Positions 54 to 62,895 of a stretch of 64,000 nucleotides of DNA are shown in pieces. How positions within the stretch are numbered: the stretch's first letter is position 1; every line of letters starts with the position of its first letter. The position numbers were made by a program, and so were the translations under genes. The notes beneath the pieces are model-generated. The model was not told the DNA's origin, searched no databases, and saw nothing but the letters and a program-made list of their open reading frames with translations. This DNA comes from Oscillospiraceae bacterium. Its GTDB lineage: Bacteria > Bacillota > Clostridia > Oscillospirales > Oscillospiraceae. The stretch spans positions 221-64,220 of the forward strand of contig JAISJH010000068.1 of NCBI GenBank assembly GCA_031261635.1, given 5' to 3'.

Positions 54-302
54 ACAGTTATCAAATATCAAATATCAGAGACGTTATGACAATTGATAAT
101 GAATAATTACGGGGGTTTGGACGGGTTGACGTTGGGGCGGGTTTCAAACCCGCCCTCCCCCGTCCTACGTCCCGGCGCCCGGCGCCGGGACGTAGGACGG
201 GGGTTGCGTAATCCGGGCGAGGCAAGCCTCGCCCCTACGCCCTCCCGCAGGGCGCAACCCCGTCCAAGCCAACGTCTCTGATATTTGATATTTGATAACT
301 GT
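54..302. mobile_element. MITE-like intergenic element bounded by perfect 30-bp terminal inverted repeats
   Basis: ACAGTTATCAAATATCAAATATCAGAGACG at 54-83 and its exact reverse complement at 273-302. The interior is a chain of GC-rich palindromes (GGGGCGGGTTTCAAACCCGCCC; 22-bp arms CCCCCGTCCTACGTCCCGGCGC/GCGCCGGGACGTAGGACGGGGG; GGGCGAGGCAAGCCTCGCCC). No credible ORF. Confidence 0.6.
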
Positions 303-317
303 TATCTGTTGAAGCGA

Positions 318-346
318 TTGACAAACGCGATTTTAAGTGTTACAAT
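318..346 (+). promoter_or_regulatory. sigma-A type promoter (TTGACA-17-TACAAT) immediately upstream of the chromate transporter gene
   Basis: TTGACA at 318-323, 17-nt spacer, TACAAT at 341-346. The ATG at 356 is only 9 nt downstream of the -10, so the transcript is probably leaderless or near-leaderless. Confidence 0.6.
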
Positions 347-355
347 ATAGGTACT

Positions 356-901
356 ATGGGTTTACTACTACGTTTGTTTCTGATTTTCGCTAAAATCGGG
401 CTGTTTACAATTGGCGGGGGGCTGGCGATGCTGCCGCTTGTTCAGCAGGAGCTTATTGCGGGCGGGTATATGTCGCTTCGGGAGAGCATTGATATGCTCG
501 CTATATCGCAGATGACCCCGGGACCTTTCGCCGTCAACGCCGCTACGTTCAGCGGTATGCGGCTCGCGGGGGTGTGGGGAGCGGTGTCGGCAACGCTGGG
601 AGTGATACTCCCGAGCCTCGTGATTTGCCTTCTGGTCGCAAAACGTTTTTTCGCGTCTTTAGGAAAACCGCAGGTTCGCGCGGTGTTGAACGGTATCAAG
701 CCCGTGGTGTTCGCGCTTATTTTGAGCGGTATGCTCGAGATATGCCGCGAGGCGTTTTTCCCTACGGCGGGAAAGTGGACGCCGGACGTCCCGGTGGTCG
801 CGATAGCGGTCGTGACAACGCTGCTGCTGGTAAAGACAAAGTTGTCGCCCGCGCTGCTGGTACTGGGTTGCGGAGTGGTGGGCGCGGTGTTTCTACAATG
901 A
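356..901 (+). CDS. chromate transporter (ChrA) family protein, short single-domain form
   Basis: 181 aa, multi-TM. The N-terminal FAKIGLFTIGGGLAMLPLVQQE motif is typical of the chromate ion transporter family. Confidence 0.75.
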   Translation: MGLLLRLFLIFAKIGLFTIGGGLAMLPLVQQELIAGGYMSLRESIDMLAISQMTPGPFAVNAATFSGMRLAGVWGAVSATLGVILPSLVICLLVAKRFFASLGKPQVRAVLNGIKPVVFALILSGMLEICREAFFPTAGKWTPDVPVVAIAVVTTLLLVKTKLSPALLVLGCGVVGAVFLQ

Positions 902-941
902 ATAGTTAATAGTGAATAATGAATAATTGGAGGGTTCGGAT

Positions 942-1139
942 ATGCCTAACGAGTTGATACGTGAAATTGAAACTTTGCCTGTCAGCGTTCTTGATGAACT
1001 GTATAATTACATCGGGTTCATTAAGAATCAAAAAGCTCAGAAAGCCCAAAAAGCGTCAGATATTGCGCTTGCTAGTGAGCGCGTTTTGGCGCGGGAGTGG
1101 CTAACGCCGGAGGAGGACGAAGCGTGGGCGCATTTGTAA
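942..1139 (+). CDS. type II antitoxin (DUF2281-like), partner of the downstream MazF/PemK toxin
   Basis: ATG at 942 is preceded by GGAGGG. The small acidic protein (IREIETLPVSVLDELYNYIGFI) overlaps the start of the toxin gene at its 3' end. The track ORF start at 927 is a TTG upstream of the SD. Confidence 0.6.
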   Translation: MPNELIREIETLPVSVLDELYNYIGFIKNQKAQKAQKASDIALASERVLAREWLTPEEDEAWAHL

Positions 1140-1453
1140 AAGGTGACGTCGTTGTCGTTCCGTTTCCGTTTTCTAATCTAAAGGCTGTCAAACGCCGCCC
1201 GGCTCTCGTGCTTGTTGATTTACCCGGTGATGATTTGATACTTTGTCAGATTACAAGTCAAACAGTTAACGACGATTTGGCTGTAACAATTGATATTCAG
1301 GACATTTTGGGCGGGTCGTTAACCAAAATCAGCAGTGCGAGAACAAACAAGCTGTTTACAATCGAAGCGTCGCTTGTGGCGTATAAGGTCGGCTCGCTTA
1401 AAGACGATATATTGAACGAAATTATTGATAAACTTGTCAGTCTACTAAAATGA
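1124..1453 (+). CDS. MazF/PemK family endoribonuclease toxin
   Basis: KGDVVVVPFPFSNLKAVKRRPALVL is the MazF/PemK N-terminal signature. A GTG at 1124 lies 6 nt after GGAGGAGGA and overlaps the antitoxin stop. The track start at 1097 is an upstream GTG. Confidence 0.8.
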   Translation: MGAFVKGDVVVVPFPFSNLKAVKRRPALVLVDLPGDDLILCQITSQTVNDDLAVTIDIQDILGGSLTKISSARTNKLFTIEASLVAYKVGSLKDDILNEIIDKLVSLLK

Positions 1454-1465
1454 CTAACCGGAAAG

Positions 1466-3031: not shown

Positions 3032-3509
3032 AAAAACTGTCGCGGTTTTCAAGGGTTTAGTGTTTTTGCTGATACTATACCTCTTGCAAACGGGAGTGTT
3101 TCCGCATTTGCGTATATACGGCGTTGCGCCTCTGCTGCTGCCCGCCGGGGTGATTGTGATTGCGCTGCTAAAAGTCGGGCAGTCGGGCGGCGTCTGGGGA
3201 ATAACCGCAGGAATACTCTGCGATATGAGCGTGGGCGATTCGCCGCTGATGTGTACGCTGTTTCTGGGAGCGGCGGGGCTTGCCGCGAGCTACCTGGCAC
3301 AGCATTTTCTGGCGAGGACGTTTTTAACGTTTATAACGGTCACGGCGCTCGCGCTGATACTGCTCGCGGCGGTGCAGGCGGCTCCGCTGATGATTTTCGC
3401 GAGGGTAAACATACGCGCAGTCCTCCCGGTAGCCGCCGCGCAGACGGTCTACAGCCTCGCGCTATCGGCGGCAGTATGGCCGCTTGGACAATTGATAATT
3501 GATAATTGA
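3012..3509 (+). CDS. mreD: rod shape-determining protein MreD-like membrane protein
   Basis: About 165 aa, 4-5 TM, with a GGVWGITAGILCDMSVG motif resembling the MreD G..G.L.D core. It lies upstream of PBP2. ATG at 3012 (GTG 2997 is an alternative). The last codons are read out of an AT-rich heptad repeat. Confidence 0.55.
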   Translation: MLSITAKKTVAVFKGLVFLLILYLLQTGVFPHLRIYGVAPLLLPAGVIVIALLKVGQSGGVWGITAGILCDMSVGDSPLMCTLFLGAAGLAASYLAQHFLARTFLTFITVTALALILLAAVQAAPLMIFARVNIRAVLPVAAAQTVYSLALSAAVWPLGQLIIDN

Positions 3510-3530
3510 TAATTGACAATTGACAATTAT
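3489..3530. repeat. AT-rich heptad tandem repeat (6 x 7 bp: CAATTGA/TAATTGA)
   Basis: caattga taattga taattga taattga caattga caattat. It spans the mreD stop codon. Confidence 0.9.
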
Positions 3531-3556
3531 CGCCTGCGGGCGGGAAGGGTTATTTT

Positions 3557-4305: not shown

Positions 4306-4320
4306 CAGGAGAAAAAACAA

Positions 4321-6390: not shown

Positions 6391-6393
6391 TTA

Positions 6394-6892
6394 ACAGTTA
6401 TCAAATATCAAATATCAGAGACGTTAGTTCAGATAACAGTTATCAGATATCAAATATCAGAGACGGGGGTTTTGGACGAAAGGTGCGCCGCGTGACGTAG
6501 GGGCGGGTTTCAAACCCGCCCTCCCCCGCGCCGTGCGCGGGGTGCGCCGTCCCGGCGCAGGGCAGGGCGTTGCCCTGCCCGTCATTGCGAGCCGCGCGAA
6601 GCAATCCAAGCCCAGTATCCCCCGTCCTGCCCCACGTCCCACGTCCCACGTCCCACGTCCTACGTCCCACGTTCAGCGTCCCGGCGCCGTGCGCCGTCTT
6701 TGCGAAGCACCGGTAAGCCTGCGATACGCAGAACGTTACAGGTGCGAAGCAATCCAGTGCCGGGAGGATAACTTACGGACTACGTATCGCAGGATACTAC
6801 GTCAACCCGGGCTTGGCTTCGCCCTGCCGCGCGCCGGGGCGATTTCCCCGCGCACGGCGCGTGGAGGGCGGGTTTGAAACCCGCCCCTACGT
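6394..6892. repeat. composite intergenic mosaic repeat (two AT-rich terminal modules plus GC-rich palindrome chain)
   Basis: Terminal modules at 6394-6423 and 6436-6465. The GGGGCGGGTTTCAAACCCGCCC hairpin near the left end is mirrored at 6863-6892. Also present: GTCATTGCGAGCCGCG, a CACGTCC 7-mer run at about 6632-6672, and the CAATCCAGTGCCGG core at 6750-6763. Confidence 0.85.
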
Positions 6893-6955
6893 AATCTCCG
6901 TGTACCTCCCACAAAAATGTTTACAATTTATTCACAATTCCCCCACAAAAGGCTC

Positions 6956-6984: not shown

Positions 6985-7032
6985 ATAGTTGTTTATAAGC
7001 TCAACTGTTCAACCGTTTTATGGGGGCGTGAT

Positions 7033-7464: not shown

Positions 7465-7595
7465 GTAGGGGGCGATGCCCACATCGCCCCGTTACGTAGA
7501 ATTTAACGTGATAAACCCGGCGGGACGATGTGGGCATCGTCCCCTACGAGATTGCTATGACAATTCAGGCGTGGCAAGCCTTGCCCCTACACGCG
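7465..7595. repeat. GC-rich hairpin repeat pair between arsR and the ATPase gene
   Basis: GTAGGGGGCGATGCCCACATCGCCCCGT and GGGACGATGTGGGCATCGTCCCCTAC, then GGCAAGCCTTGCCCCTAC. The same pair recurs at about 19128-19215. Confidence 0.8.
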
Positions 7596-9556: not shown

Positions 9557-9591
9557 GCTTGTAGGGACGACCAAAGGTCGCCCCTACAAGC
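9557..9591. terminator. bidirectional hairpin between convergent genes
   Basis: GCTTGTAGGGACGACC-AAA-GGTCGCCCCTACAAGC lies between the stops at 9549 (+) and 9593 (-). Confidence 0.6.
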
Positions 9592-12077: not shown

Positions 12078-12772
12078 AGGCGCACCCCCCTCTAAAGAGG
12101 GGGGCTTTGGAGGGAGGGACGAGGGTTGCGGGGGAAAGATTGAGGGGCTACGTAGGGGCGGGGTTCAAACCCGCCCTCCTCCGTCCCGGCGCCCTCCTCC
12201 GTCCCGGCGCCCTCCTCCGTCCCGGCGCCCTCCTCCGTCCCGGCGCCGTGCGCCGTCTTTGCGAAGCACCGGTAAGCCCGCGATACGTAGGACGTTACAG
12301 GTGCGAAGCAATCCAGTGCCGGGGGGACAACATACGTCCCAACGTATCTTGGGTACCTACGTCAACCCTGGATTGCTTCGCCGCATATCATCGGTACGTA
12401 TCGCAAGTGCGGTGGCGGCTTCGCAAAGACGGTGCGCCGGGGGGCGCACCACGGGCAGGGCGAAGCCCCGCCCTGTCCCGGCGCAATGCGCCGGGACGGT
12501 GGACGGGGTTACGCCGCGCACGGCGCGGGGAGGGGTTTTGCACACGTCTGTAGGGGCGAGGCTCGCCTCGCCCGGTTGCCAATTTCCCCCGGTTGCCAGT
12601 TTTACCCCAGTAATCCGGGCGAGGCAAGCCTCGCACCTACAGACCGCAACGTACATTTGGAAACCCCGCAACCCCCGTCCAAACCCCCGTCTCTGATATT
12701 TGATATTTGATATTTGATAACTGTTATCTGTTATTTGCTATCTGTTATTTGCTGTCTGCTATCTGATAACTG
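12078..12772. repeat. composite intergenic mosaic repeat with an 18-mer x4 tandem array and an 11-unit heptad tail
   Basis: CCCTCCTCCGTCCCGGCG x4 at 12174-12245. Nested palindrome GTCTTTGCGAAGC...CAATCCAGTGCCGG (12309-12322)...CTGGATTGCTTCGC...GCTTCGCAAAGAC. Terminal module CGTCTCTGATATTTGATATTT followed by TGNTATY heptads to 12772. Confidence 0.9.
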
Positions 12773-12782
12773 AAAAAAGCCC

Positions 12783-14072: not shown

Positions 14073-14515
14073 ACAGTTATCAAATATCAAATATCAGAGA
14101 CGATGGGTTGGACGAGGGTTGCGGAGATGGAACAGGCAAATTCCCCTCTTGGGAGGGGTGGCGCGAAGCGCCGGGGTGGTCTCCCGCCGCAGCGACCGTA
14201 CTCCGTCCCTCCCCCGTCATTGCGAGCCGCGGTAAGCTTGCGATACGTAGCAATGAGACCGGCGCGGCAATCCAGTGCCGGGGGCGTAACTTACGGTATC
14301 TGTGGCTTATACTACTGGATTGCTTCGCGCCTAAACCTTGGTTGTATGTTAAGTTTTCCGGCGCTCGCAAAGACGGTGCGCCGGGACGTAAGACGTAGGA
14401 CGTAGGTCATTGGACGTAGAACGTAGAACGAGGCTTGCGCGGCAACGCGGTTCATATACCCCGCGCAATGACAATCGTCCCATTATTCATTATTAACTAT
14501 TCACTATTCATTAAT
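14073..14515. repeat. composite intergenic mosaic repeat
   Basis: Terminal module at 14073-14102, CCCCTCTTGGGAGGGG hairpin, GTCATTGCGAGCCGCG...CAATCCAGTGCCGG...CTGGATTGCTTCGCGCC...GGCGCTCGCAAAGAC nested palindrome, GGACGTAG 7-8-mer run, and an ATTATTC/ACTATTC heptad tail abutting the SD of the next gene. Confidence 0.85.
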
Positions 14516-15341: not shown

Positions 15342-15740
15342 ACAGTTAGCAAATATCAAATATCAGAGACGTGGGGTTTGGACGCGGGGTGCGTTTGCGC
15401 GTTATTACACGCCCGTAGGGGCGGGTTTCAAACCCGCCCTCCCCCGTCCCGGTGCCGTGCGCCGAGGGCGGGGCGTAGCCCCAGCCCGTCATTGCGAGCC
15501 GCGGAACGCGTAAGATACGTAGGATTGAAACCGGCGCGGCAATCCAGTGCCGGGAGCGTAACTTACGTATCTGTGGCTTATACTTACGGTATCTGAGGCT
15601 TATCCTACTGGATTGCTTCGCGCCTAAACCTTGGTTGTATGTTGAGCCTCCCGGCGCTCGCAATGACGAACTCTTAAATCTCCGCGCTAACGCTTAAATT
15701 CTCGCATTATTCATTATTAAATATTAACTATTCATTATAT
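15342..15740. repeat. composite intergenic mosaic repeat
   Basis: Terminal module at 15342-15371 (ACAGTTAGCAAATATCAAATATCAGAGACG), GGGGCGGGTTTCAAACCCGCCC, the GTCATTGCGAGCCGCG...CAATCCAGTGCCGG...CTGGATTGCTTCGCGCC...GCGCTCGCAATGAC palindrome, and an ATTATTC heptad tail. Confidence 0.85.
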
Positions 15741-16689: not shown

Positions 16690-16992
16690 AACTCAGCCCC
16701 TGCCCCCTTCCGGAGAAGGGGGTGCCTCCGCAGAGGCGGGGGTTGTTCTCTAAGAATTGCGGTAACCCTTAAAGACCAACCCCCGCCGCCTGCGGGCGGC
16801 ACCCCCTTCGTGCGCGAAGGGGGCAGGGAGCGGGAATAGTGCGCGATAAACCGCGTCCCTACGTCCCGCCGCCTGCGGGCGGCACCCCCTTCGTGCGCGA
16901 AGGGGGCAGGGAGCGGGAATAGGGCGCGATAAATCGCGCCCCTACGTCCCGCCCCCGTCTCTGATATTTGATATTTGATAACTGTTAACTGA
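16690..16992. repeat. composite intergenic mosaic repeat containing an 83-bp tandem duplication
   Basis: CCCGCCGCCTGCGGGCGGCACCCCCTTCGTGCGCGAAGGGGGCAGGGAGCGGGAATAG.GCGCGATAAA.CGCG.CCCTACGT occurs twice (16782-16864 and 16865-16947). The terminal module CGTCTCTGATATTTGATATTTGATAACTGT is at 16956-16985. Confidence 0.9.
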
Positions 16993-17976: not shown

Positions 17977-17984
17977 TTTAATTG

Positions 17985-18090
17985 ACAATTGATAATGAAT
18001 AATGAATAATTTCAAATCTTTTATCGGAGCTTTTGAGTTTACATTATTCTTTATTCATTATTCACTATTCACTATCACTATCACTATTCA
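17985..18090. repeat. AT-rich heptad repeat spacer
   Basis: Runs of GAATAAT/CAATTGA, then ATTCATT/ATTCACT/ATCACT units up to the SD of the BKACE gene. Confidence 0.8.
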
Positions 18091-19017: not shown

Positions 19018-19025
19018 TACAAATA

Positions 19026-19334
19026 ACAGTTATCAAATATCAAATATCAAATATTAGACGCGGGATAATTTGACCTGTACTGAAACATTGTAATATCAAC
19101 CCTGTCCTAAAACCTTTTGCGGTCTAATGTAGGGGGCGATGCCCACATCGCCCCGTTCCGCAGAATGTGGGATTGATGAACCCGCGGGACGATGTGGGCA
19201 TCGTCCCCTACACTGATACGGAGGGTTGGACGTGGGTTGCGTAATCCGGGCGGGGCTGGGAAACCCCGCCCCTACGTCCCTCCGCAACCAAACGTCCTAA
19301 CCCTCGTCTCTGATATTTGATATTTGATATCTGT
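19026..19334. mobile_element. MITE-like intergenic element with imperfect terminal inverted repeats
   Basis: ACAGTTATCAAATATCAAATATCAAATATTAGACG at 19026-19060 versus CGTCTCTGATATTTGATATTTGATATCTGT at 19305-19334. The interior carries the GGGGGCGATGCCCACATCGCCCC / GGGACGATGTGGGCATCGTCCC hairpin pair also seen at 7465-7550. Confidence 0.55.
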
Positions 19335-23269: not shown

Positions 23270-23645
23270 TTCGTAGGGGCGGGTTTCAAACCCGCCCTCC
23301 CACGTCCCACGTTCCGGCGCCGTGCGCCGTCTTTGCGAAGCACCGGTAAGCCTGCGATACGTAGGACGTTACAGGTGCGAAGCAATCCAGTGCCGGGGGG
23401 GAAACTTACGTCCCTACGTATCACAGACTACTACGTCAACCCTGGATTGCTTCGCCGCGTTTCAATGTTACGTATCGCAAGTGCGGTGGCGGCTTCGCAA
23501 TGACGGGCAGGGCGAAGCCCTGCCCTTACGGGGGCGGGCGCTTCGCTGATACGTAGGTAGGACGGGGGTACGGCGCGCACGGCGCGGGAAACCACCCCGC
23601 CGCCTGCGGGCGGCACCCCTCCACAGAGGGGATAAGGACGGGGGT
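23270..23645. repeat. composite intergenic mosaic repeat (GC modules only, no AT-rich terminal module)
   Basis: GGGGCGGGTTTCAAACCCGCCC, the GTCTTTGCGAAGC...CAATCCAGTGCCGG...CTGGATTGCTTCGCC...GCTTCGCAATGAC nested palindrome, GGGCAGGGCGAAGCCCTGCCC, and CCGCCGCCTGCGGGCGGC. Confidence 0.85.
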
Positions 23646-24632: not shown

Positions 24633-25148
24633 GCGTCCAAACCCTCGTCCCACGTATCGGCGCGGTGCGCCGGGGCGGGGCTTGCCCCTGCCCGTCATTG
24701 CGAGCCGCGGAACGTTTGCGATACGTACCATTGAGACCGGCGCGGCAATCCAGTGCCGGGAGCGTAACTTACGTATCTGCGGACTGCGGCACTGGATTGC
24801 TTCGCGCCTATAACCGCGTTGTATGTTAGGCTTCCCGGCGCTTCGCAATGACGGACTTTTTAGCTTTTTGGGATACAATAACCCGCGCCCAAACCCTCGT
24901 CCCGTGTATCGGCGCGGTGCGCCGGGAAACCACCCCGCCGCTGCGGCGGCACCCCTCCCAAGAGGGGAATAGGACGAAAATAGGACGAGGGTTGCGAAGT
25001 TGCCGTAATCTTACAGAAACGCAGAGACAAAATTCCCCTCTTGGGAGGGGTGGCGCGTAGCGCCGGGGTGGTATCCCCGCGCCGTGCGCGGACGTAACCG
25101 CGTCCAAGCCCCGTAATTATTCATTATTCACTATTACATATTCATTGT
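24633..25148. repeat. composite intergenic mosaic repeat with an internal about 250-bp-spaced duplication
   Basis: GCG.CCAAACCCTCGTCCC..GTATCGGCGCGGTGCGCCGGG occurs at about 24633 and about 24883. Also present: the GTCATTGCGAGCCGCG...CAATCCAGTGCCGG...CTGGATTGCTTCGCGCC palindrome, CCCCTCTTGGGAGGGG, and an ATTATTC heptad tail. Confidence 0.85.
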
Positions 25149-25149
25149 G

Positions 25150-32235: not shown

Positions 32236-32247
32236 TACCCGCTGTAA

Positions 32248-54097: not shown

Positions 54098-54128
54098 TAG
54101 TAAAATATTGGGAACGCAATCTTTAGTT

Positions 54129-54585
54129 AACAGTTATCAAATATCAAATATCAGAGCCGGTGTAACAGTTAACAGTTAGCAAATATCAAATATTAGAGAC
54201 GGGGGGCTTGGACGGGGGGCGCGTCCGCGCTCGGCGCGGGAAACCACCCCGGCGCTACGCGCCACCCCTCCCAAGAGGGGAATTTTCCGCGCACGGCGCG
54301 GGGACGGAATACAACCCCTGCATACGGTTCCCGCGTGCGCGCCCCTATTCCCCTCTTGGGAGGGGTGCCGCCGCAGCGGCGGGGTGGTTTCCCCCGCAGG
54401 GCGCAACTCCCGTCCAAACCTTTCGTCTCTGATATTTGATATTTGCTATCTGTTAACTGAACTTTCGTCTCTGATATTTAATATTTAATAACTGTTAACT
54501 GAACTTTCGTCTCTGATATTTGATATTTAATAACTGTTAACTGAACTATCGTCTCTGATATTTGATATTTGCTAACTGTTAACTG
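54129..54585. repeat. composite mosaic repeat ending in a 4 x 42-bp tandem array of the terminal module
   Basis: Terminal modules at 54129-54158 and 54164-54200, and paired CCCCTCTTGGGAGGGG / GAAACCACCCCGGCG palindromes. CGTCTCTGATATTTGATATTTGCTAACTGTTAACTGAACT.T starts at 54424, 54466, 54508 and 54550. The last unit supplies the hemW stop codon. Confidence 0.9.
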
Positions 54586-55781
54586 ATTAAAGCGTAGTAG
54601 TCGTCCTCTCGCCAGGGGGTTCCTACTTGGGATTTACGTTCCGCCTGGGCGTCGAGGAGTTCGCCGATTAGCCTGTTGGAGAGGAGGAAGCCTTTGGGGG
54701 TCAGGAGGTAGGCGTCGCCGCGTTTTCGCGCGAAGCCTAGTTTTTCGTAGGTCACGAGCGTTTTTTCGAGGGTGTCGAAGCCTCCGCGGTAGATTTGCTC
54801 GTAGCCCTGCCGCGTAATGCCGCGCGTTGTGCGAAGCCCGAGCATAATGTACTCGGCGGCCTTGCTGTAGGCGTTCAGCGTTTCGCTGTCCTCGTCGTTG
54901 ACGACGTTAGTCCCGCCCTCGACCGCCGCGATGTAAGCGTCGGGCGAGCGCAGGTAGCTGTAGCGCGAGTTACCGAGAAACGAAGCCGCCGAAGCTCCGA
55001 AGCCGGCGTACTCCTCCAGAAGCCAGTATTTGAGGTTGTGCCGCGACTCGAAGCCCTTTCGCGCGAAGTTTGAGATTTCGTATTGAGCGAAGCCCGCGCC
55101 GCCGAGCGTATCGACCGCGTAGAGGTACATATCCGCCTGCATATCGTCGTCGGGGATATCGGGAGCGCGGCGTACCCGCCAGAGCGGCGTATTGCGCTCG
55201 ATTTTCAGCCCGTAGGCCGATATATGCTGCGGAGCGGAGCGCAGAACGCCGCTTAGTGTCTGCGCCCAGTCCTCACGCGTCTGCCCCGGCAGGCCGTAGA
55301 TTATGTCAACGCTGACGTTTTCAAAACCCGCGAGCTTCGCGTCAAGCACAGCGTCAAGCGCAAGCTCGGCGTTATGCAAACGCCCAAGGTTCGAGAGCTG
55401 CGCGTTATTGAGCGTCTGCACCCCGATTGAGATACGGTTGAAGCCGTCCCTGCGAAGAAGCTTCAGCTCGTCCCGCCGTATGCTCTCGGGGTTTGCCTCG
55501 AACGTAATCTCCGGGGTTTTGGAAATTTTATAGTCCCTGTCGATAGCCGATAGGAGCCTCGACAGCCGCTTCGCCCCGTAGTGGGTAGGCGTCCCGCCGC
55601 CGAAGTAAATTGTATCCACTTCATACCCCTCAAGGCGCGGCGCGAACTCGCGCAAATGCTTCAAAAGCGCACGCTGGTAGGCGTCCATAAGCCCGTCCTT
55701 ATCGGGAAATGAACAGAAATCGCAGTAAACACACTTCGATTTGCAAAACGGCAGATGGACGTAAATCCCGATGTTTCTCAT
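54579..55781 (-). CDS. hemW: radical SAM heme chaperone HemW (coproporphyrinogen III oxidase-like)
   Basis: YVHLPFCKSKCVYCDF is the CxxxCxxC cluster motif, with a HemN-like C-terminal domain; 400 aa. Confidence 0.9.
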   Translation of the reverse strand: MRNIGIYVHLPFCKSKCVYCDFCSFPDKDGLMDAYQRALLKHLREFAPRLEGYEVDTIYFGGGTPTHYGAKRLSRLLSAIDRDYKISKTPEITFEANPESIRRDELKLLRRDGFNRISIGVQTLNNAQLSNLGRLHNAELALDAVLDAKLAGFENVSVDIIYGLPGQTREDWAQTLSGVLRSAPQHISAYGLKIERNTPLWRVRRAPDIPDDDMQADMYLYAVDTLGGAGFAQYEISNFARKGFESRHNLKYWLLEEYAGFGASAASFLGNSRYSYLRSPDAYIAAVEGGTNVVNDEDSETLNAYSKAAEYIMLGLRTTRGITRQGYEQIYRGGFDTLEKTLVTYEKLGFARKRGDAYLLTPKGFLLSNRLIGELLDAQAERKSQVGTPWREDDYYALIS

Positions 55782-55904: not shown

Positions 55905-55918
55905 GCCCGAACATATTA

Positions 55919-56287
55919 GGGGGCAAATTGCGTAGCGGCTTGTAGGGGCGGGTTTCAAACCCGCCCTCCCCCGTCCCACGTCCCGGCGCCGTGCGCCGTC
56001 TTTGCGAGCGCCGCCGCACTTGCGATACGTAGGGCGTATAGGCGCGCGGCAATCCAGTGCCGGGAGTGTAACATACGTATGTTGTCCCCCCGGCACTGGA
56101 TTGCTTCGCACCTGTAACGTCCTACGTATCGCGGGCTTTCCGGTGCTTCGCAAAGACGGGCAGGGCGAAGCCCTGCCCTGTCCCGGCGCACCGCGCCGGG
56201 ACGGTGGACCGGGGTTACGTCCGCGCACGGCGCGGGGTGGGCGGGTTTCAAACCCGCCCCTACGAGCCGCTACGCAAATTTGCCCCC
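55919..56287. repeat. about 370-bp near-palindromic mosaic repeat
   Basis: The ends are inverted copies: GGGGGCAAATTGCGTAGCGGCTTGTAGGGGCGGGTTTCAAACCCGCCC ... GGGCGGGTTTCAAACCCGCCCCTACGAGCCGCTACGCAAATTTGCCCCC. The core CAATCCAGTGCCGG...CCGGCACTGGATTG is at about 56050-56100, with arms in the opposite order to the copies at 12.3 kb and 23.4 kb. Confidence 0.9.
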
Positions 56288-56306
56288 GAACACGCATTTT
56301 TTTCAT

Positions 56307-58827: not shown

Positions 58828-58830
58828 ATA

Positions 58831-59150
58831 ACAGTTATCAAATATCAGATATCAAATATAAGAGACGAGGGGTTAAGGGGTTGTATTCAAACAGTAGAGA
58901 GTCAAGAGTCCGTCATTGCGAGCCGCGGAACGCTTGCGATACGCAGAATTGAAACCGGCGCGGCAATCCAGTGCCGGGGGCGTAACTTACGTATCTGTGG
59001 CTTATACTACTGGATTGCTTCGCGCCTAGACCTTGATTGTTTGTTAAGCCTTGCGGCGCTTCGCAATGACGAACTTTTTAGCTTTTCGCGTCTTGTTTAC
59101 AGCGACCTAACCCCCCGGGCGGGGCAAGCCCCGCCCCTACGAGCTGGTGC
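58831..59150. repeat. composite intergenic mosaic repeat
   Basis: Terminal module at 58831-58867, the GTCATTGCGAGCCGCG...CAATCCAGTGCCGG...CTGGATTGCTTCGCGCC...GCGCTTCGCAATGAC palindrome, and GGGCGGGGCAAGCCCCGCCC. Confidence 0.85.
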
Positions 59151-59277
59151 GACAGTTTACATTCCCGCGCATACGAGCCAATGCGACAGTTTACATTCCC
59201 GCACGTACAATAGCGGTGCGTTTTAATTGACATCTCTGTAGAAACATTCACATATATCAAAGAAAGAAGAATCTATA

Positions 59278-59898
59278 ATGGCACTACGCAAAATACTTCG
59301 GCAAGGCGATAAGGCGTTACTGCGGCTCAGTCGGCCTGTTACTGACTTTGACGCCCGGCTTGCTCAATTGCTTGACGACCTGCACGAAACTATAGAAAGC
59401 GAAGAAGGTATGGGGCTCGCGGCTCCGCAAGTGGGCGTTTTACGCAGGGCTTGCCTTGTTATCGACCTCACGGGACCCGAGGACGAAGTTTTAGAGCTTA
59501 TCAATCCGGAGATTATCCACTACTCGGAGGAACTCGACACGGCCTGCGAGGGCTGTCTTTCCGTACCCAATATCTGGGGTATGGTCGACCGCCCTAAAGA
59601 GGTGCGCGTTCGGGCGCAGGACAGGCAGGGCAACGTTTTTGAGCTTGACTGCGACAATTACCTCGCCCGCGCCATTCAGCACGAAATTGACCACCTCGAC
59701 GGCGTACTATTCAGCAAGAACACCACGCGCTTCCTCTCCGAGCGCGAAGCCGAAGCCATTATGGACGGCCGCGAGCGCGAATTTAGAAAACGGCGAAAGA
59801 ACGCGCGTCTGCTTGCCGCCAAGAGCGGTACGCGCCCGAGTTCTATCAATTCGCGAAAGATTATTATTCAGCCCGCAGACGGCGCGGAGAGCGTATGA
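59278..59898 (+). CDS. def: peptide deformylase with a basic C-terminal extension
   Basis: GMGLAAPQVG, EGCLSVP and HEIDHLDG motifs. About 50 extra K/R-rich residues follow the catalytic domain. Confidence 0.9.
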   Translation: MALRKILRQGDKALLRLSRPVTDFDARLAQLLDDLHETIESEEGMGLAAPQVGVLRRACLVIDLTGPEDEVLELINPEIIHYSEELDTACEGCLSVPNIWGMVDRPKEVRVRAQDRQGNVFELDCDNYLARAIQHEIDHLDGVLFSKNTTRFLSEREAEAIMDGREREFRKRRKNARLLAAKSGTRPSSINSRKIIIQPADGAESV

Positions 59899-60548
59899 CG
59901 ATAAACATTATAACCTTGTTTCCCGAGGTCGTAGACAAGGCCTTGAACTACAGCATCATAGGCAGGGCGCGGGACAAGGGCGCGGTGAACATCAAAACGC
60001 TACAGCTTCGCGACTACACCTGGCACAGGCAGAAGCAAACCGACGACTACCCCTACGGCGGCGGCGGGGGAATGGTGCTGTACGCACAGCCGCTCCTCTC
60101 CGCCTGGGCGGATATACGCGCGGAAGCGGGCTTTCCGCATATCCACACAGTCCTGACCTCGCCGAGGGGACATAAATTCACGCAGGAGGACGCTAAACGT
60201 CTGGCAAAACTTGACAGTTTTATTATAGTCTGCGGGCATTATGAGGGCGTTGACGAGCGTTTTATAGAGGCCTGCGTTGACGAGCAAATCTCTATAGGCG
60301 ATTTCGTGGTAACAGGCGGCGAAATGCCCGCCGCGCTGATAGCCGACGCTACGGCGCGGCTCCTCCCCGGCGTTCTCGCAAGCGAGGACAGTTTCAAACG
60401 CGAAAGCCACTGGGACGGCTACCTCGAACACCCGCACTACACGCGCCCCGAAGTCTGGGAGGGAAAACGCGTCCCCCCCGTGCTACTGTCGGGGAACCAT
60501 AAGGCGATTGCGGAATGGCGGGAGTTAAACCAGGTATATATTAAATAA
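59895..60548 (+). CDS. trmD: tRNA (guanine37-N1)-methyltransferase
   Basis: ITLFPEVV, DDYPYGGGGGMV, VCGHYEGVDER, SIGDFVVTGGEMPA, HPHYTRPEVWEG..VPPVLLSGNH. The start overlaps the def stop (ATGA). Confidence 0.9.
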   Translation: MTINIITLFPEVVDKALNYSIIGRARDKGAVNIKTLQLRDYTWHRQKQTDDYPYGGGGGMVLYAQPLLSAWADIRAEAGFPHIHTVLTSPRGHKFTQEDAKRLAKLDSFIIVCGHYEGVDERFIEACVDEQISIGDFVVTGGEMPAALIADATARLLPGVLASEDSFKRESHWDGYLEHPHYTRPEVWEGKRVPPVLLSGNHKAIAEWRELNQVYIK

Positions 60549-61075
60549 CAGTTATCAAATATCAAATATCAGAGACGATGTGACAGTTAACAGATATCAA
60601 ATATCAGATATCAGAGACGAAGGTTTGGACGGGGGTTGCGTCCTGCGGGGGACACCCCCGTCCCGGCGCACCGTCATTGCGAGCCGCGCGAAGCAATCCA
60701 AGCCCAGTACCCCCGTCTTGCCCCTCGTAATTATTCATTATTCATTGTCAATTGTTATAAGTCCCGGCGCCGTGCGCCGTCTTTGCGAGCGCCACCGCAC
60801 TTGCGATACGTAGGACGTTTAGGCGCGCGGCAATCCAGTGCCGGGAGCGTAACATACGGACTACGTACTTACGTATCGCAGACTACTACGTCAACCCTGG
60901 ATTGCTTCGCCGCATATCATTAACTACGTATCGCAAGTGCGGTGGCGGCTTCGCAATGACGGGCAGGGCGATGCCCTGCCCGCGCAGTACGCACTGCCCC
61001 CGCGGTACGCACTACCCGCGCAGTACGCACTACCCCCGCAATACGGGCGGGGCAAGGTGCGTTGCCCCTACGAAC
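60548..61075. repeat. composite intergenic mosaic repeat
   Basis: Terminal modules at 60548-60577 and 60583-60619, GTCATTGCGAGCCGCGCGAAGCAATCCAAGCCC, internal ATTATTC heptads, the GTCTTTGCGAGCGCC...CAATCCAGTGCCGG...CTGGATTGCTTCGCC...GCTTCGCAATGAC palindrome, and three about 17-nt GCAGTACGCACT.CCC units at about 60981-61040. Confidence 0.9.
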
Positions 61076-61127
61076 CACAGCGATTTTACATTTCCGTCCG
61101 TCCAATCCACAACAACAAGGACACCAA

Positions 61128-61571
61128 ATGAAACACGTTACAATTTACACTGACGGGGCTTGTTCCGGGAACCCCGGACCCGGGGGCTGGGGGGCTATAC
61201 TCCGCTTCGGGCGGCACGAGCGCGAATTATCGGGCGGCGACGCTCATACCACCAATAACCGTATGGAGCTGTCCGCTGTAATCTCCGCTTTGGAACTGCT
61301 TACGGAACCCTGCGAAGTCTCGCTTTTCAGCGACAGCAAGTATGTTATAGACGGTATTTCAAAAGGCTGGGCGGCCTCGTGGCGGCGAAAGGGCTGGAAA
61401 AAATCAGACGGCAAACCCGCGCTAAACCCCGACTTGTGGGAAAAGCTCTTAAACCTTTGCGACAGGCATACGGTCACATTCAACTGGGTAAAAGGCCACA
61501 ACGACAACCCCGGTAACGAACGCTGTGACGAACTTGCACGGAACGCTATTAACGATGTACGAGGTAAATAG
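61128..61571 (+). CDS. rnhA: ribonuclease HI
   Basis: [51 protein letters not shown] at 61128. Confidence 0.9.
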
Positions 61572-61574
61572 ACA

Positions 61575-62429
61575 ATGGAAAAAGGCTTAGGTCGCGGCTT
61601 GTCCGCGCTGTTTGGTTCCGCGGCGGACGCGGAGGAACTCGAATGTGTGTATCTCCCGCTCGTTTCCGTCGAACCGAACGATACTCAGCCGCGAAAGCTC
61701 TTTGACGAGGAGGCGCTTGCGGAACTCGCGGACTCTATCGCGCGTCACGGCGTGCTTCAGCCGCTCGCGGTGCGAAAATTGTCGGGCGGGAGCTACAGCA
61801 TTATCGCGGGTGAACGCCGCTGGAGAGCGGCGCGGCTCGCCGGGCTTGATACTGTCCCCTGCCGGATACTCGACGTTGACGAACGCACGGGAGCGGAACT
61901 AGCGCTTGTGGAAAACCTCCAGCGCGAGGACCTGAACGCGCTCGAGGAAGCGCGGGGTTTTCGTCGGCTTATCGACGACTACAGCCTTACGCAGGAGCAG
62001 ATTTCAGAGGCGGTCGGTAAATCGCGCCCGGCCGTAGCAAACGCCCTGCGTCTGCTATCGCTGCCGGAGGAGGTATTAACGCTCGTGGAAAGCGGAAAAC
62101 TATCCCCGGGTCACGCAAGGGCGGTGCTGAAACTGGACGGCGAGAAGCTGCGGCGCAAGCTCGCGAACGTAATAGTTCGCGACGGCTTGTCGGTTCGTGA
62201 AGCCGAGGCCGCCGCAAAGAAGCTACAGGATTTAGGCGACGCGCCGCTCGAAGCCGTAGTAAAACCTCCCGACAAGCGGACGCTTCATATTAGAGATCTC
62301 GAACAGAAACTAACAACCGAGCTGAAACGCAAAGTAGCAATCTCCGGCAAAGGCAAACGCGGGAGGCTGATACTGGAATACTACGACCTGAACGATTTGG
62401 ACAGTTTGATAAATGCCTTGCGCGGGTAG
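61575..62429 (+). CDS. parB: ParB/Spo0J/Noc family chromosome partition protein
   Basis: GLGRGLSALF, PNDTQPRKLFDEEALAELADSIARHGVLQPLAVR, and GERRWRAA. There is no adjacent parA in this window. Confidence 0.85.
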   Translation: MEKGLGRGLSALFGSAADAEELECVYLPLVSVEPNDTQPRKLFDEEALAELADSIARHGVLQPLAVRKLSGGSYSIIAGERRWRAARLAGLDTVPCRILDVDERTGAELALVENLQREDLNALEEARGFRRLIDDYSLTQEQISEAVGKSRPAVANALRLLSLPEEVLTLVESGKLSPGHARAVLKLDGEKLRRKLANVIVRDGLSVREAEAAAKKLQDLGDAPLEAVVKPPDKRTLHIRDLEQKLTTELKRKVAISGKGKRGRLILEYYDLNDLDSLINALRG

Positions 62430-62431
62430 CA

Positions 62432-62895
62432 CTCCCCGCAGGACGCACCCCCCGCCTCTGCGGAGGCACCCCCCTCTAAAGAGGGGGGCTTTGGAGGGTA
62501 GGACGGAGATGCGCCGCGCACGGCGCGGGCGCAACCCCCGTCCAATCCCACGTCCCGGCGCAGTGCGCCGTCTTTGCGAGCCGCGGAACGCTTGCGATAC
62601 GTAGCATTGAGACCGGCGCGGCAATCCAGTGCCGCAGTCAGCAGATACGTATGTTATGTTCCCGGCAAATACGTATGTTACGCTCCCGGCACTGGATTGC
62701 TTCGCGCCTGTAATGTTCTACGTATCGCAAGTGCGGCGGCGCTCGCAAAGACGGCGCACGGCGCCGGGACGTAGGACGCAGGCGCGGGGGGTGCCGCGTC
62801 CCCCGTCCAAACCCACGTCTCTGATATCTGATATTTGCTAACTGTTAACTGAACCACCGTCTCTGATATTTGATATTTGCTAACTGTTATCTGGT
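62432..62895. repeat. composite intergenic mosaic repeat ending in a 2 x 42-bp terminal-module array
   Basis: CCCCTCTAAAGAGGGG hairpin, the GTCTTTGCGAGCCGCG...CAATCCAGTGCCGC...CCGGCACTGGATTGCTTCGCGCC...GCGCTCGCAAAGAC palindrome, and terminal modules starting at 62816 and 62858. Confidence 0.9.

Follow-up and report, generated by a model that had tools for sequence, protein, structure and literature searches.

Bacterial REP sequences include a GTAG and a CGTC superfamily, which some genomes hold together (PMC3733652). The second is marked by a CGTC tag and a CCAG tail and, according to Di Nocera et al., has no known dedicated transposase (PMC3733652). In Neisseria, other repeats are interspersed among CGTC units, and in A. 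variabilis AT-rich long palindromes enclose REP dimers (PMC3733652). REPs with a double foot are also known (PMC6006769), and the Clostridia include Group 1 RAYTs (PMC5581495).

Here we analyse the intergenic repeat tracts in 64,000 nt of DNA from an uncultured member of the Oscillospiraceae (the whole stretch, hereafter the window); all findings on the tracts derive from one short-read assembly. We read them as a mosaic of the BIME/NIME kind: non-autonomous palindromic elements of REP type that expanded in one lineage, were probably copied by a RAYT-type enzyme and were reshaped by slippage and deletion. We give this reading slightly better than even odds.

Extent and composition of the tracts

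Self-blastn of the window confined repeated DNA, SLH-gene paralogy apart, to 18 tracts, nearly all of them intergenic (Table 1). They match the 18 tracts of the original prediction, with edges shifted by no more than a few tens of bases, and its estimate of one eighth of the window, or about 8 kb, also holds: the predicted coordinates total 7,962 bases (12.4%). BLAST-covered repeat amounts to 7,418 bases outside 34.8-53.4 kb, only about 100 of them inside genes. Within 34.8-53.4 kb, as had been claimed, no module of the mosaic occurs; the repeats there are the paralogous 5' parts of SLH-domain genes. To place repeats between nearly every pair of genes was too strong: with the SLH locus excluded, 18 of 38 spacers are occupied, and these include all spacers above about 280 bp. 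Repeats do lie within a transcription unit, as predicted, four tracts falling between a promoter perfect by sequence (12783-12812) and the sole convincing terminator (22152-22182). The spurious ORFs ascribed to repeats were recovered too: of 130 ORFs with 90 amino acids or more, 24 lie mostly within tracts.

Each module quoted in the original prediction is found in the window. With three mismatches or fewer allowed, the 30-mer ACAGTTATCAAATATCAAATATCAGAGACG occurs 22 times (0 expected); loci number 9 for GGGGCGGGTTTCAAACCCGCCC, 13 for CCCCTCTTGGGAGGGG, 6 each for GGGCAGGGCGAAGCCCTGCCC and CCGCCGCCTGCGGGCGGC, 5 for the CCCGGCGCAATGCGCCGGG type, 4 for GGGCGAGGCAAGCCTCGCCC and 16 for GTCATTGCGAGC heads. 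Four kinds of piece recur in the tracts: GTAG hairpins, long CGTC hairpins, GC hairpins without a tag together with short linkers containing CGTCC, and AT arrays. CGTC/GACG is observed 176 times in tracts against 81 expected, and ACGT 99 times against 32. Composites of 200-336 nt are shared by seven loci at 77-91% identity, tandem repeats have periods of 7, 11, 18, 42 and 83 nt, and in computed folding entire tracts form palindromes nested within one another, the longest measuring 376 nt.

Table 1 Repeat tracts and solitary elements of the window, with the matching self-blastn segments.
Position	Strand	Self-blastn	Feature
54..302	.	41-310	Complete small element: A-type AT array, B-type array, GT-box GGGGGTTTGGACG, REP1 hairpin, hairpin 157-203 (perfect 22-bp stem), REP2 (CTAC foot), GT-box', A'; inverted ends of 30 nt (54-83 / 273-302); folds into single closed structure, dG -105 kcal/mol, z -18.4
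895..935	+		Solitary B-type heptad array (AATAGTG/AATAATG) filling 40-nt spacer to ribosome-binding site; nearly identical copy at 27696-27731
3487..3529	+		Solitary heptad array AATTGAT x5.6, then small GC hairpin, ribosome-binding site
6394..6892	+	6388-6893	Mosaic tract from 3 nt past PBP2 stop: two A arrays 42 nt apart, GT-box, GTAG-REP1 (6497), GC hairpins, compact CGTC unit (6581), CCCACGT x6, left half of long hairpin (6696), REP1' with CTAC (6866-6890); 330 nt homologous to 26856-27159
7465..7591	.	7464-7547	Tags-outward REP3 dimer (GTAGGGGGCGATGCCCACATCGCCCC ... GGGACGATGTGGGCATCGTCCCCTAC), recurring at 19129-19211, and one REP2-like hairpin; no AT arrays
9561..9587	.		Single double-foot REP GTAGGGACGACCAAAGGTCGCCCCTAC, GTAG class, in convergent spacer, outside any mosaic
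12078..12773	+	12082-12780	Mosaic tract, divergent spacer: P3 hairpin, GTAG-REP1, 18-nt repeat x4.2, long hairpin 12253-12432, GC hairpins, REP2 dimer, GT-box', extended A' array; then the promoter
14073..14515	+	14065-14513	Thiolase-SDR spacer: A array 3 nt past stop, P module, long hairpin 14214-14376, GGACGTA x6.7, B' array adjoining ribosome-binding site
15342..15738	+	15335-15737	SDR-cyclase spacer: A array, GT-box, GTAG-REP1, long hairpin 15486-15669, B' array
16690..16992	+	16714-16994	Cyclase-HADH spacer: GC hairpins, 83-nt unit x2.1 (16782-16953; bears P2, hairpin, CTAC-footed REP), A' array 16956-16985 beside ribosome-binding site
17977..18090	.		Empty shell, HADH-BKACE spacer: inverted B-type heptad arrays around ~30 nt; no GC module; folding z -3.9
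19020..19334	.	19015-19352	After BKACE: degenerate A array, REP3 dimer 19129-19211, GT-box, CTAC-footed REP, GT-box', A' array 19305-19334
23270..23645	+	23266-23644	Between minus-strand genes: GTAG-REP1, long hairpin 23327-23506, hpC, P2/P1 module; no AT arrays
24633..25150	+	24632-25148	Between minus-strand genes: GT-box', long hairpin 24692-24854, inverted P-module pair, B' array adjoining stop codon at 25150
26691..27425	+	26679-27419	Largest tract, divergent spacer: two A arrays, GT-box, P3, GTAG-REP1 (26859), compact CGTC unit (26942), long hairpin 27035-27208, hpC, hpE, REP1' CTAC (27288-27312), CCCCGTCCAAT x3.7, P module; HTH gene promoter comes next
28650..29339	+	28726-29357	In small-membrane-protein gene array: long hairpin 28752-28931, hpC, hpE, inverted P-module pair, TACCCCCGTCC x4.2, B' and A' arrays (29271-29339)
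31757..32243	.	31759-32229	Between gatB and 252-aa ORF: GTAG REP (31759), inverted P modules around long hairpin 31873-32034; right edge B array + GT-box
54129..54586	.	54123-54593	Element bounded by A arrays, two left and four right (42-nt tandem, 54420-54586); inverted P-module pair inside
55919..56287	+	55919-56287	Composite REP1(GTAG) - hpH - long hairpin 55996-56159 - hpC - hpE - hpG - REP1'(CTAC), enclosed by 21-nt inverted repeat; AT arrays absent; folds as single 376-nt hairpin, dG -174.7 kcal/mol, z -18.4
58831..59202	+	58825-59202	After priA: degenerate A array, long hairpin 58910-59072, CTAC-footed REP (59117-59140), 34-nt tandem x2.1
60548..61075	+	60539-61071	After 59895..60548 ORF: two A arrays, GT-box, compact CGTC unit (60673), internal B' array, long hairpin 60777-60962, hpC, 18-nt repeat x3.7, CTAC-footed REP (61049-61071)
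62432..62895	+	62449-62894	After parB: P3/P modules, long hairpin 62568-62754 (loop duplicated, 24-nt x2.1), GT-box', two A' arrays

Hairpins, arrays and their orientation

The GTAG REPs, GC hairpins of 25-30 nt with a 5' GTAG foot, comprise six or more sequence types. Of the 42 perfect tract hairpins (stem of at least 7 bp), 18 have a foot reading GTAG or CTAC, with six different stem sequences among them; a looser scan finds about 24 REPs of the GTAGGGG type in the window, all with the canonical foot form, GTAG followed by GGGC...GCCC. Pairs with their tags outward are common (6497/6890, 7465/7547, 19129/19211, 26859/27312, 55942/56263).

Twelve hairpins of 160-180 nt have the GTCATTGCGAGC and GTCTTTGCGAAGC blocks as their outer ends; each hairpin is made of two inverted 65-80-nt units with a CGTC tag, an ATTGC... 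stem and a CCAG tail. CGTC/GACG stands at all 24 outer ends, and the inner tails are CCAG. GCAATCCAG and its complement show no variation across 15 copies; compensatory change is almost nil (3 of 37 pairs, covariation term -0.38), and an A/T position of the outer stem is matched in just 7 of the 12 copies. Tag and tail are those of the CGTC superfamily, but the stems have 5 contiguous pairs where that superfamily has 8-9, and the loops span 12 to ~45 nt instead of 4-5 nt.

AT-rich arrays of 7-nt units lie inverted at the gene-proximal edges of the tracts, where, joined by the GGGGTTTGGACG box, they make up the outer stem that closes the whole tract. The AT-rich module described earlier is indeed terminal, but there are several AT arrays with 7-nt periodicity, of which it is one.

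The long composites are without exception direct repeats of one another, irrespective of the strand of neighbouring genes. Nine long hairpins are asymmetric, and all nine have their asymmetric inner stem on the + side; the + strand of the window has positive GC skew. In IS200/IS605, lagging-strand, single-strand transposition yields such a strand bias (PMC6006769), and the tracts here are biased likewise. The bias is not absolute, since on another contig of the same metagenome (L086) long hairpins face both ways, one against two.

Spread in the source genome and comparison with relatives

With the translation of tract 26691..27425 as query, one protein search gave 40 matches to spurious repeat ORFs and another gave 66 (1.8 billion representative proteins). 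Every match that bears a name, among them all ten of the new matches sampled, is an LBM98_ protein, the tags running from 00125 to 13650; among the 1.8 billion representative proteins, none was named outside this metagenome-assembled genome. A protein on a contig within the LBM98_ accession range matches the BKACE of the window with 100% identity. Confinement to the window, which the original prediction had set against itself, is not what we find: the family is dispersed across the source genome.

The thiolase-SDR, SDR-cyclase and cyclase-HADH spacers measure 466, 424 and 344 bp in the window, and 60, 72 and 126 bp in relative L087 (90% nucleotide identity). In L001 (86%), whose contig begins within the thiolase-SDR spacer, the other two are 130 and 107 bp; in L005 (77%) the cyclase-HADH spacer is 2 bp and the HADH-BKACE spacer 17 bp. 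Orthologous spacers of relatives span 0-130 bp; some are bare, and others hold a single REP or an empty AT-rich shell: the SDR-cyclase spacer contains one REP2 hairpin in L087 and a B...B' shell in L001, and the 126-bp cyclase-HADH spacer of L087 an A...A' shell whose A' is orthologous to the A' end in the window. The L087 contig ends in an A array, at a position matching tract 19020..19334. The GTAG REP class is common to the window and related Oscillospiraceae, and the REP3 type of tract 7465..7591 also occurs in L018 and L006. These sequence comparisons show the tract expansion to be a lineage-specific gain in one Oscillospiraceae lineage.

Possible origin and kinship with known families

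In the reading we prefer, an HUH/Y1 enzyme of the RAYT (TnpA-REP) type would copy the tagged units, as single-stranded DNA, into new sites; we infer this enzyme, encoded elsewhere in the genome, and its single-strand route. The window contains no RAYT or other Y1 gene and no DDE transposase, and no target-site duplication is visible at element ends. New copies would land preferentially in or beside existing hairpins, just past stop codons, and the tracts would therefore turn into nested palindromes. Nesting may have come about by insertion or by central deletion. The AT arrays, found at orthologous positions in three genomes, look like the outcome of vertical inheritance with local turnover, not of fresh insertion.

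On the same reading, replication slippage would then add the 7-, 11-, 18-, 42- and 83-nt tandem repeats, and central deletions and inversions would rearrange the tracts. Operon-internal tracts would be transcribed into long RNA hairpins, which could alter mRNA decay or read-through.

Of the original view of the family, the dense modular intergenic repeats stand; their position beyond classical REP families does not, canonical REP feet and CGTC tags being present. The pieces are of known bacterial types, REP-like palindromes; the density and nesting of the tracts and their AT-rich end-pieces are unusual. Classical REPs prefer unidirectional and convergent spacers, whereas the mosaic occupies none of the four convergent spacers of the window (SLH locus excluded). 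The BIMEs of E. coli and the mosaic regions of Neisseria are defined by clustering, by alternating orientation and by their interleaving with repeats of other kinds, and the tracts of the window are comparable to both.

Extent, placement and spread of the repeat tracts

Self-comparison of the window returned the same 18 intergenic repeat tracts as the original prediction, with edges agreeing within a few tens of bases. The predicted coordinates sum to 7,962 bases (12.4%), matching the proposed share of one eighth; repeat covered by BLAST outside 34.8-53.4 kb amounts to 7,418 bases, nearly all intergenic. The recurrent AT-rich 30-mer is indeed present, with 22 copies when up to 3 mismatches are allowed, where none is expected, and each of the GC-rich modules put forward recurs 4-17 times in the window. 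None of these GC-rich modules lies within 34.8-53.4 kb, the stretch already described as free of the family, and the suspected spurious ORFs are real enough: the tracts make up 24 of the 130 ORFs of at least 90 amino acids. Only the statement that repeats sit between nearly every pair of genes was too strong, since outside 34.8-53.4 kb 18 of 38 spacers are filled; in the same part of the window every spacer longer than about 280 bp holds a tract.

Tract-bearing spacers are unidirectional in 14 cases, divergent in three and unclassified in one, and none of the four convergent spacers carries a tract. From a point 2-8 nt past stop codons, tracts run up to a ribosome-binding site or stop shortly ahead of a promoter. 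All long composites (200-336 nt, 77-91% identical) repeat each other in direct orientation, no matter which strand the adjoining genes are on. All nine asymmetric long hairpins of the window have their asymmetric inner stem on the + side; those of L086, another contig from the same metagenome, split 1 to 2. GC skew of the + strand is weakly positive, also when plus-strand and minus-strand genes are taken separately. A single replichore, with the tagged strand on the lagging-strand template, fits this picture. The four tracts inside the BKACE operon are probably transcribed, as the operon reads as having one perfect promoter and one convincing terminator, and terminator-like sites are not enriched (14 versus 14.7 expected).

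Protein searches used the translation of the largest tract (26808-27419) as query. It matched 40 proteins among 5.8 billion, and an exhaustive HMMER scan of 1.84 billion representatives gave 66 matches. All named matches, like 10 of 10 sampled new ones, are entries "hypothetical protein LBM98_..." of one Oscillospiraceae genome, with tags spanning 00125 to 13650. A second genome carrying the family was considered and excluded: the window's BKACE is 100% identical to a protein inside the accession range of the LBM98_ genome. The matches thus lie on other contigs of the window's own genome, and the family is therefore spread genome-wide in its host; confinement to the window, which the original prediction had named as a refutation, is not what is seen. 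The long composites are apparently private to this one host genome. At least 66 public "hypothetical proteins" of 46-213 amino acids, annotated or predicted in the LBM98_ genome, are repeat translations, that is, annotation artefacts. L086 carries a 680-nt tract built of the same modules and two solitary long hairpins.

Elsewhere the family went unmatched. The exact AT-rich 30-mer was absent among the matches listed in species-representative genomes, and an exact 19-mer gave five matches in JGI metagenome contigs, all in unrelated coding DNA and about as many as estimated beforehand by chance from pattern length and collection size. The comparison with Rfam, one of the checks called for at the outset, turned up nothing relevant: covariance models gave no match in the window at the gathering score and two chance microRNA-hairpin matches at E ≤ 1. 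A tRNA scan of the window found none, the largest tract had no blastn match in collections of plasmids and phages, and a full-text search found the six module sequences quoted in no paper of the library searched.

Tagged hairpins, AT-rich arrays and their folding

Taking from PMC6006769 and PMC3733652 the definition of a REP as GT[AG]G at the 5' foot of a 20-40-nt GC-rich stem-loop, we find such units throughout the tracts. They read GTAG-GGGC...GCCC, or the complement with a terminal CTAC, and the foot is present on 18 of 42 strict hairpins. About 24 GTAGGGG-type units with at least six stem sequences occur in the window, all intergenic, at a density of about 3.7 per 10 kb; this is a window count, genome-wide spread being seen for the composites only. 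Five inverted pairs have their tags outward, and the pair at 55942/56263 base-pairs within a 376-nt fold. Tracts contain 176 CGTC/GACG (81 expected), 99 ACGT (32 expected) and 80 GTAG/CTAC (49 expected), figures that are descriptive because copies are not independent. One convergent spacer holds nothing but a "double-foot" REP, which may act as a bidirectional terminator; the remaining three have ordinary terminator hairpins or nothing.

Features of the tracts, of related loci and of neighbouring genes (window coordinates unless a locus is named)
Feature	Position	Remark
REP1		GTAG-footed hairpin type, GGGGCGGGTTTCAAACCCGCCC
REP2		GTAG-footed hairpin type, GGGCGAGGCAAGCCTCGCCC
REP3		GTAG-footed hairpin type, GGGACGATGTGGGCATCGTCCC
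Untagged GC hairpins/linkers		CCCCTCTTGGGAGGGG-TGCCGCCCGCAGGCGGCGGGG pair; GGGCAGGGCGAAGCCCTGCCC; GTCCCGGCGCAATGCGCCGGGAC; CCGCGCACGGCGCGG
Tags-outward REP pairs	7465/7547, 19129/19211, 6497/6890, 26859/27312, 55942/56263	
Convergent spacer with double-foot REP	9550-9592	GTAGGGACGACCAAAGGTCGCCCCTAC
Compact solitary units	6581, 26942, 60673	
Lone arrays/shells, window	895-935, 3487-3529, 17977-18090, 27696-27731	
Lone arrays/shells, relative L001	830-960, 1891-1998, 9628-9760	
Lone arrays/shells, relative L004	2615-2652, 3686-3718	
Promoter-like B-type array	17982-18010	just upstream of BKACE
BKACE operon promoter	12783-12812	
BKACE operon terminator	22152-22182	
SLH-domain ORFs	34832-53401	five ORFs
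Common 5' regions of SLH ORFs, example	44617-45282	inverted relative to 46874-47551
Tyrosine recombinase gene	45480-46712(-)	
Gp49/HigB-like genes	38375-38725, 41842-42195	
Toxin-antitoxin-like pairs	1097-1453, 3557-4305, 26125-26602	
Predicted membrane ORF	32248-33006	between gatA and gatB
NYN-domain gene, relative L087	3304-3822	between HADH and BKACE

A second class comprises 12 long hairpins, each of 160-180 nt, together with a half copy and three solitary units of compact form. Each long hairpin is made of two inverted 65-80-nt units, CGTC-WTTGCGA-(variable cassette of about 35 nt)-GCAATCCAG, whose tails face each other across a variable loop. In 15 aligned copies the outer CGTC/GACG and inner GCAATCCAG/CTGGATTGC never vary; cassettes and loops differ from copy to copy by reshuffling, inversion or duplication. 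A terminal CGTC (or TGTC/CCTC) tag is carried by all 24 outer ends that the 12 long hairpins have and by three L086 copies, and the unpaired CCA-type tail, as GCAAT-CCAG, is invariant in 15 of 15 aligned copies. The stem and loop of CGTC REPs (8-9 bp with A-T/T-A as first pairs; 4-5 nt) are not reproduced: the unit stem opens ATTGC/GCAAT, with A-T and T-A first, but has only about five contiguous pairs, and the "loop" is 12 nt in the compact units and about 35-45 nt in the long form. Covariation in the outer stem was rejected, the A/T position being matched in only 7 of 12 copies and compensatory changes affecting 3 of 37 pairs. Given this near absence of compensation, the conserved blocks look, in the alignment, like sequence-specific sites rather than a selectively maintained structure.

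Tandem amplification is common among the CGTCC-containing linkers, the periods being 7, 11, 17-18, 24, 34, 42 and 83 nt. Gene-proximal tract edges carry AT-rich arrays of 7-nt units in inverted orientation, among them type A (TATCAAA/TATCAGA, ending GAGACG) and type B (AATAATG/AATAGTG), and next to them, inward, comes a GGGGTTTGGACG-NGGGTTGCG box. A-type arrays hold three-frame stops only outward; B- and C-type arrays hold them mainly inward, with 0-2 in the opposite direction, a pattern that may be chance for AT-rich heptads. Lone arrays abutting ribosome-binding sites in short spacers, and "empty shells" of inverted arrays without GC fill, are found beyond the window in its closest relatives only. 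One B-type array reads as a near-consensus promoter (TTGACA, 17 nt, AATAAT; 11 of 12 positions), and AT arrays could be an incidental source of promoters.

Tracts are predicted to fold as closed nested palindromes. The tract at 54-302 reaches -105 kcal/mol (z -18), and 55915-56290 forms a single 376-nt hairpin of -175 kcal/mol (z -18). The arms of a perfect 47-nt hairpin at 157-203 are the same as the frame around the long hairpin at 55967-56215; such nesting may come from insertion into hairpin tips or equally from central deletion.

Orthologous spacers, enzyme search and neighbouring loci

The BKACE operon (12.9-22 kb) is closest to those of termite-gut-type metagenome Oscillospiraceae genomes and Sporobacter termitidis, and its spacers were compared across genomes.

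Orthologous spacers of the BKACE operon (gene DNA identity to the window: L087, from the same metagenome, 90%; L001 86%; L005 77%)
Spacer	Window	L087	L001	L005
Thiolase-SDR	466 bp	60 bp	contig starts inside spacer	not on contig
SDR-cyclase	424 bp	72 bp, one REP2 hairpin	130 bp, B...B' shell	not on contig
Cyclase-HADH	344 bp	126 bp, minimal A...A' shell	107 bp, B...B' shell	2 bp

The A' (inverted A) array of the cyclase-HADH shell of L087 is orthologous to window 16956-16985, and in one L001 element the two GT-boxes, a recurrent linker, pair directly into a small hairpin. This comparison makes AT shells common to the closest relatives at the same sites. High densities of AT heptad arrays are limited to the window (5.6 per 10 kb), L001 (5.1), L086 (3.6) and L004 (2.0). 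REPs of the GTAGGGGC type, frequently arranged as simple dimers of 80-120 nt, are also present in L004, L006 (S. termitidis), L008, L010, L012, L018, L022 and L069, so that the REP class is old and shared. Across about 1.2 Mb of other fetched loci the long hairpin is absent, the A-type 30-mer is absent but for one L001 copy, and P modules, a further recurrent piece, are absent but for single short matches in L004, L018 and L076. Together with the spacers, this assigns the large GC-rich fill specifically to the source genome. Between HADH and BKACE, L087 has an NYN-domain gene where the window has a mere 114-bp AT shell; the L087 contig stops inside an A-type array after BKACE, an assembly break at a repeat.

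No transposase was found in the window, whose sole recombinase is the tyrosine recombinase of the SLH locus. A Y1 domain was absent from the 40 window ORFs scanned (34 belong to another Pfam family, six had no match), and phmmer with RayT and IS200 sequences as queries found no Y1 transposase either in the window or across the roughly 1.3 Mb of loci fetched.

The tyrosine recombinase gene is encircled by five SLH-domain ORFs of about 840-1030 amino acids, three on the minus and two on the plus strand, which have common 350-750-nt 5' regions at 75-85% identity. Two Gp49/HigB-like genes lie in this locus, and its GC is lower, about 48%. By analogy with Campylobacter fetus sap, it resembles a surface-layer locus capable of inversion or cassette switching. 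Three toxin-antitoxin-like pairs are found within 27 kb. One has a MazF/PemK toxin, another a PIN-domain toxin preceded by a small ORF, and the third an 85-amino-acid ORF, YoeB/RelE-like to judge from its sequence, with an overlapping 77-amino-acid partner. The gatCAB operon is split twice, by a predicted membrane ORF of 252 amino acids with no significant Pfam match and by a 480-nt repeat tract between that ORF and gatB.

Origin of the tracts and comparison with known systems

We favour, at a probability of about 0.55, REP-type repeats copied through single-stranded DNA. The figure is held there because the enzyme is unseen and the CGTC-like units depart from the stem and loop of CGTC REPs. 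The tracts fit a BIME/NIME-like mosaic by their tagged units and tags-outward dimers, by the lack of target duplications, by a shared orientation, and by having spread through the genome and expanded in this lineage. Its tagged units would be copied via single-stranded DNA by a RAYT-type Y1/HUH enzyme. In REP-RAYT systems the single-copy RAYT (TnpA-REP) gene usually lies amid the REPs it serves. GTAG REPs are thought to be mobilised by this enzyme on single-stranded DNA; RAYT has been likened to IS200/IS605 transposases, which target the lagging-strand template (PMC6006769), and Clostridia have group 1 RAYTs (PMC5581495). CGTC REPs, which include Neisseria dRS3 and Rickettsia RPE-4/-6 and are classed as CGTC-1 to -4, have no known transposase; the GTAG and CGTC superfamilies may coexist and form inverted dimers (PMC3733652). 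More tentatively, it is possible that we see a runaway, lineage-specific Firmicute REP system, in which GTAG and CGTC units co-proliferate into hairpin tips and build tolerated nested palindromes of several hundred nucleotides, a new class of AT heptad arrays serving as standing landing pad or boundary, perhaps with three-frame stops. Were this so, it would be the first system tying CGTC REPs to a mobilising enzyme, and a natural extreme of palindrome load.

No dedicated enzyme would be needed if terminator or REP hairpins had grown by slippage and template switching, then been spread or homogenised by recombination or gene conversion. This is doubtful but earns some weight because it also explains the slippage repeats, orthologous occupancy and nesting: tandem repeats of the seven linker periods (7 to 83 nt) are frequent in or beside hairpins, flanks of nested palindromes are inverted repeats in turn (as around 55919-56287), copies of the long hairpin differ in the direction of their loop, which 62568-62754 has in duplicate, three genomes have orthologous sites occupied with a fast turnover of content, and CGTC REPs have no known transposase. 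Yet the same composites recur at no fewer than 7 unlinked sites and on dozens of other contigs, the inter-locus copying rate needed is unusual for gene conversion across 20-60-nt homologies, conversion would not give a common composite orientation, and conserved GTAG/CGTC end tags and invariant blocks in otherwise variable units resemble protein recognition sites. Cut-and-paste MITEs are an unlikely explanation. Here the 30-nt AT-rich ends (ACAGTTATCAAATATC...) would be terminal inverted repeats for a DDE transposase encoded elsewhere, and GC hairpins would be passengers or later insertions. The 30-mer is well conserved in its 22 copies, with "+" copies at left and "-" copies at right tract edges, tandem 42-nt copies might offer multiple transposase-binding sites, and sizes of 250-700 nt fit. 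But inverted ends occur only at 54-302 (where they are perfect), 19020-19334 and 54129-54586, with no flanking duplication: none is seen at 54/302 or 54129/54586, where the inverted repeat fades into more heptads. In most tracts the A array is confined to one end, the other end has an array of B type, or arrays are missing altogether (23270-23645, 55919-56287); the A' array at 16956-16985 is orthologous in L087 around a different interior, and array types are swapped between L001 and L087 at orthologous sites. The window has no transposase, the 30-mer was missing from the matches listed in species-representative genomes, and the 19-mer had only chance matches in JGI contigs.

It is very improbable that the tracts are primarily functional RNA or regulatory DNA selected in place, as terminators, attenuators, mRNA stabilisers, three-frame-stop insulators or small RNAs. 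Four tracts do lie in one transcription unit, each directly filling the gap from a stop codon to the following ribosome-binding site, the structures are predicted to be extremely stable, A-type arrays set three-frame stops outward and B-type arrays inward, and REPs affect mRNA stability and termination (PMC6006769). Against this, Rfam at E ≤ 1 gave only the two chance matches, hairpins lack following T-runs, terminator-like sites are as many as in shuffles, chromosomal orientation is constant whatever the gene strand, close relatives have the same operon with 0-130-bp spacers, compensatory changes are almost nil, and the stop pattern arises by chance in about half of AT-rich heptads by our own estimate. 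Integron attC arrays, CRISPR, riboswitches or small RNAs, and terminator arrays were ruled out by housekeeping neighbours, lack of spacers, occurrence on both strands and lack of T-runs. All results rest on one short-read metagenome assembly (JGI 3300042601), the only one with this genome, the NCBI genome being binned from the same contigs; a close strain, L087, shares the sample, and relatives' contigs break inside arrays. Chimeric joins and collapsed or invented palindromes are nevertheless hardly credible, for gene order across the tracts agrees with relatives over the whole operon, tract edges respect stop codons, ribosome-binding sites and promoters, copies are diverged with module-level insertions and deletions, the same design recurs on dozens of contigs with unique flanks, and related arrays and REPs exist in independently binned relatives. 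No exact repeat of at least 77 nt occurs in the window, which leaves the k-mer graph unambiguous and is why the contig assembled at all; younger, near-identical copies are invisible here since they would have broken the assembly.

Each kind of piece is known and the architecture is in part precedented, so this is not a new category. Unusual are the local load of about 12%, some ten times what is commonly given for E. coli BIMEs; nested palindromes several hundred nucleotides long inside operons; both tag types together in a Firmicute, REP-type repeats being best known from Proteobacteria; the AT heptad arrays as standing boundaries; and the contrast with a 90%-identical relative, near-empty at the same sites, which makes this a recent, datable repeat expansion to study. 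The tracts bear on how CGTC REPs, without known transposase (PMC3733652), originate and are mobilised and, being imperfect palindromes of up to 376 nt, also on how a cell tolerates such structures inside operons. In practice, short-read assemblies break at the family, and its translations have put dozens of false "hypothetical proteins" into this genome's annotation.

With GTAG REPs and REPINs mobilised by RAYT (PMC2817692, PMC3116915, PMC3733652, PMC6006769), the tracts share the 5' GTAG foot on a GC-rich stem whose first three pairs are G-C, the coexistence in one genome of several sequence types of 25-30-nt unit, tags-outward inverted pairs foldable as a single hairpin, intergenic sites near gene 3' ends, the double-foot form and occurrence of the class in related genera. 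They differ in that no RAYT gene was seen in the window and fetched loci, pair members are up to 400 nt apart with other repeats between them instead of 20-100 nt, and the mosaic is missing from convergent spacers, whereas REPs mostly occupy unidirectional and convergent ORF spacers near 3' ends. The host is a Firmicute, and a 2013 survey lists no Firmicutes, its GTAG REPs being from Proteobacteria, Cyanobacteria, Chloroflexi and the PVC group alone (PMC3733652). Likeness to CGTC REPs lies in the terminal CGTC tag, the stem starting with A-T and T-A pairs, the unpaired CCA(G) tail, the inverted dimers and the presence of GTAG REPs in the same genome, as in Neisseria, Bradyrhizobium and Coxiella (PMC3733652). 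Here, however, units are 65-80 nt with about five contiguous pairs and a 12-45-nt variable cassette, against an 8-9-bp stem and 4-5-nt loop, tails face each other, and the host belongs to the Firmicutes, from which none has been reported.

MITEs, ERIC and Correia elements are likewise intergenic, co-transcribed, 150-700 nt long, with terminal inverted repeats and insertion-made size variants; the tracts are composites of tagged REP units with inconsistent ends, no target-site duplication and no cognate IS. Closer are E. coli BIMEs and Neisseria NIMEs, which PMC2817692 describes as composite intergenic REP arrays in alternating orientation, interleaved with other short motifs and repeat families and sited between co-transcribed genes; such interleaving is also noted for Neisseria mosaic regions (PMC3733652). 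The tracts show alternating orientation and recurrent linkers (GT-box, CGTCC-type), but their spacing is irregular, without a fixed linker set, and other repeat classes intervene; they are also nested palindromes closed by AT-rich arrays, unrelated in sequence and locally much denser. Heterocystous cyanobacteria have heptameric STRR repeats, AT-rich 7-nt tandem repeats in intergenic DNA. In Anabaena variabilis, REP dimers of GTAG-15 lie inside a longer AT-rich palindrome (...ATTTGATT..TGAAA--TTTCA..AATCAAAT...) (PMC3733652), much as the tagged units do here. The AT arms of the window differ in being variable, with several heptad types (TATCAAA, AATAATG, CAATTGA, TAACAGT), and such arrays also stand alone or as empty shells, and at orthologous sites in relatives.
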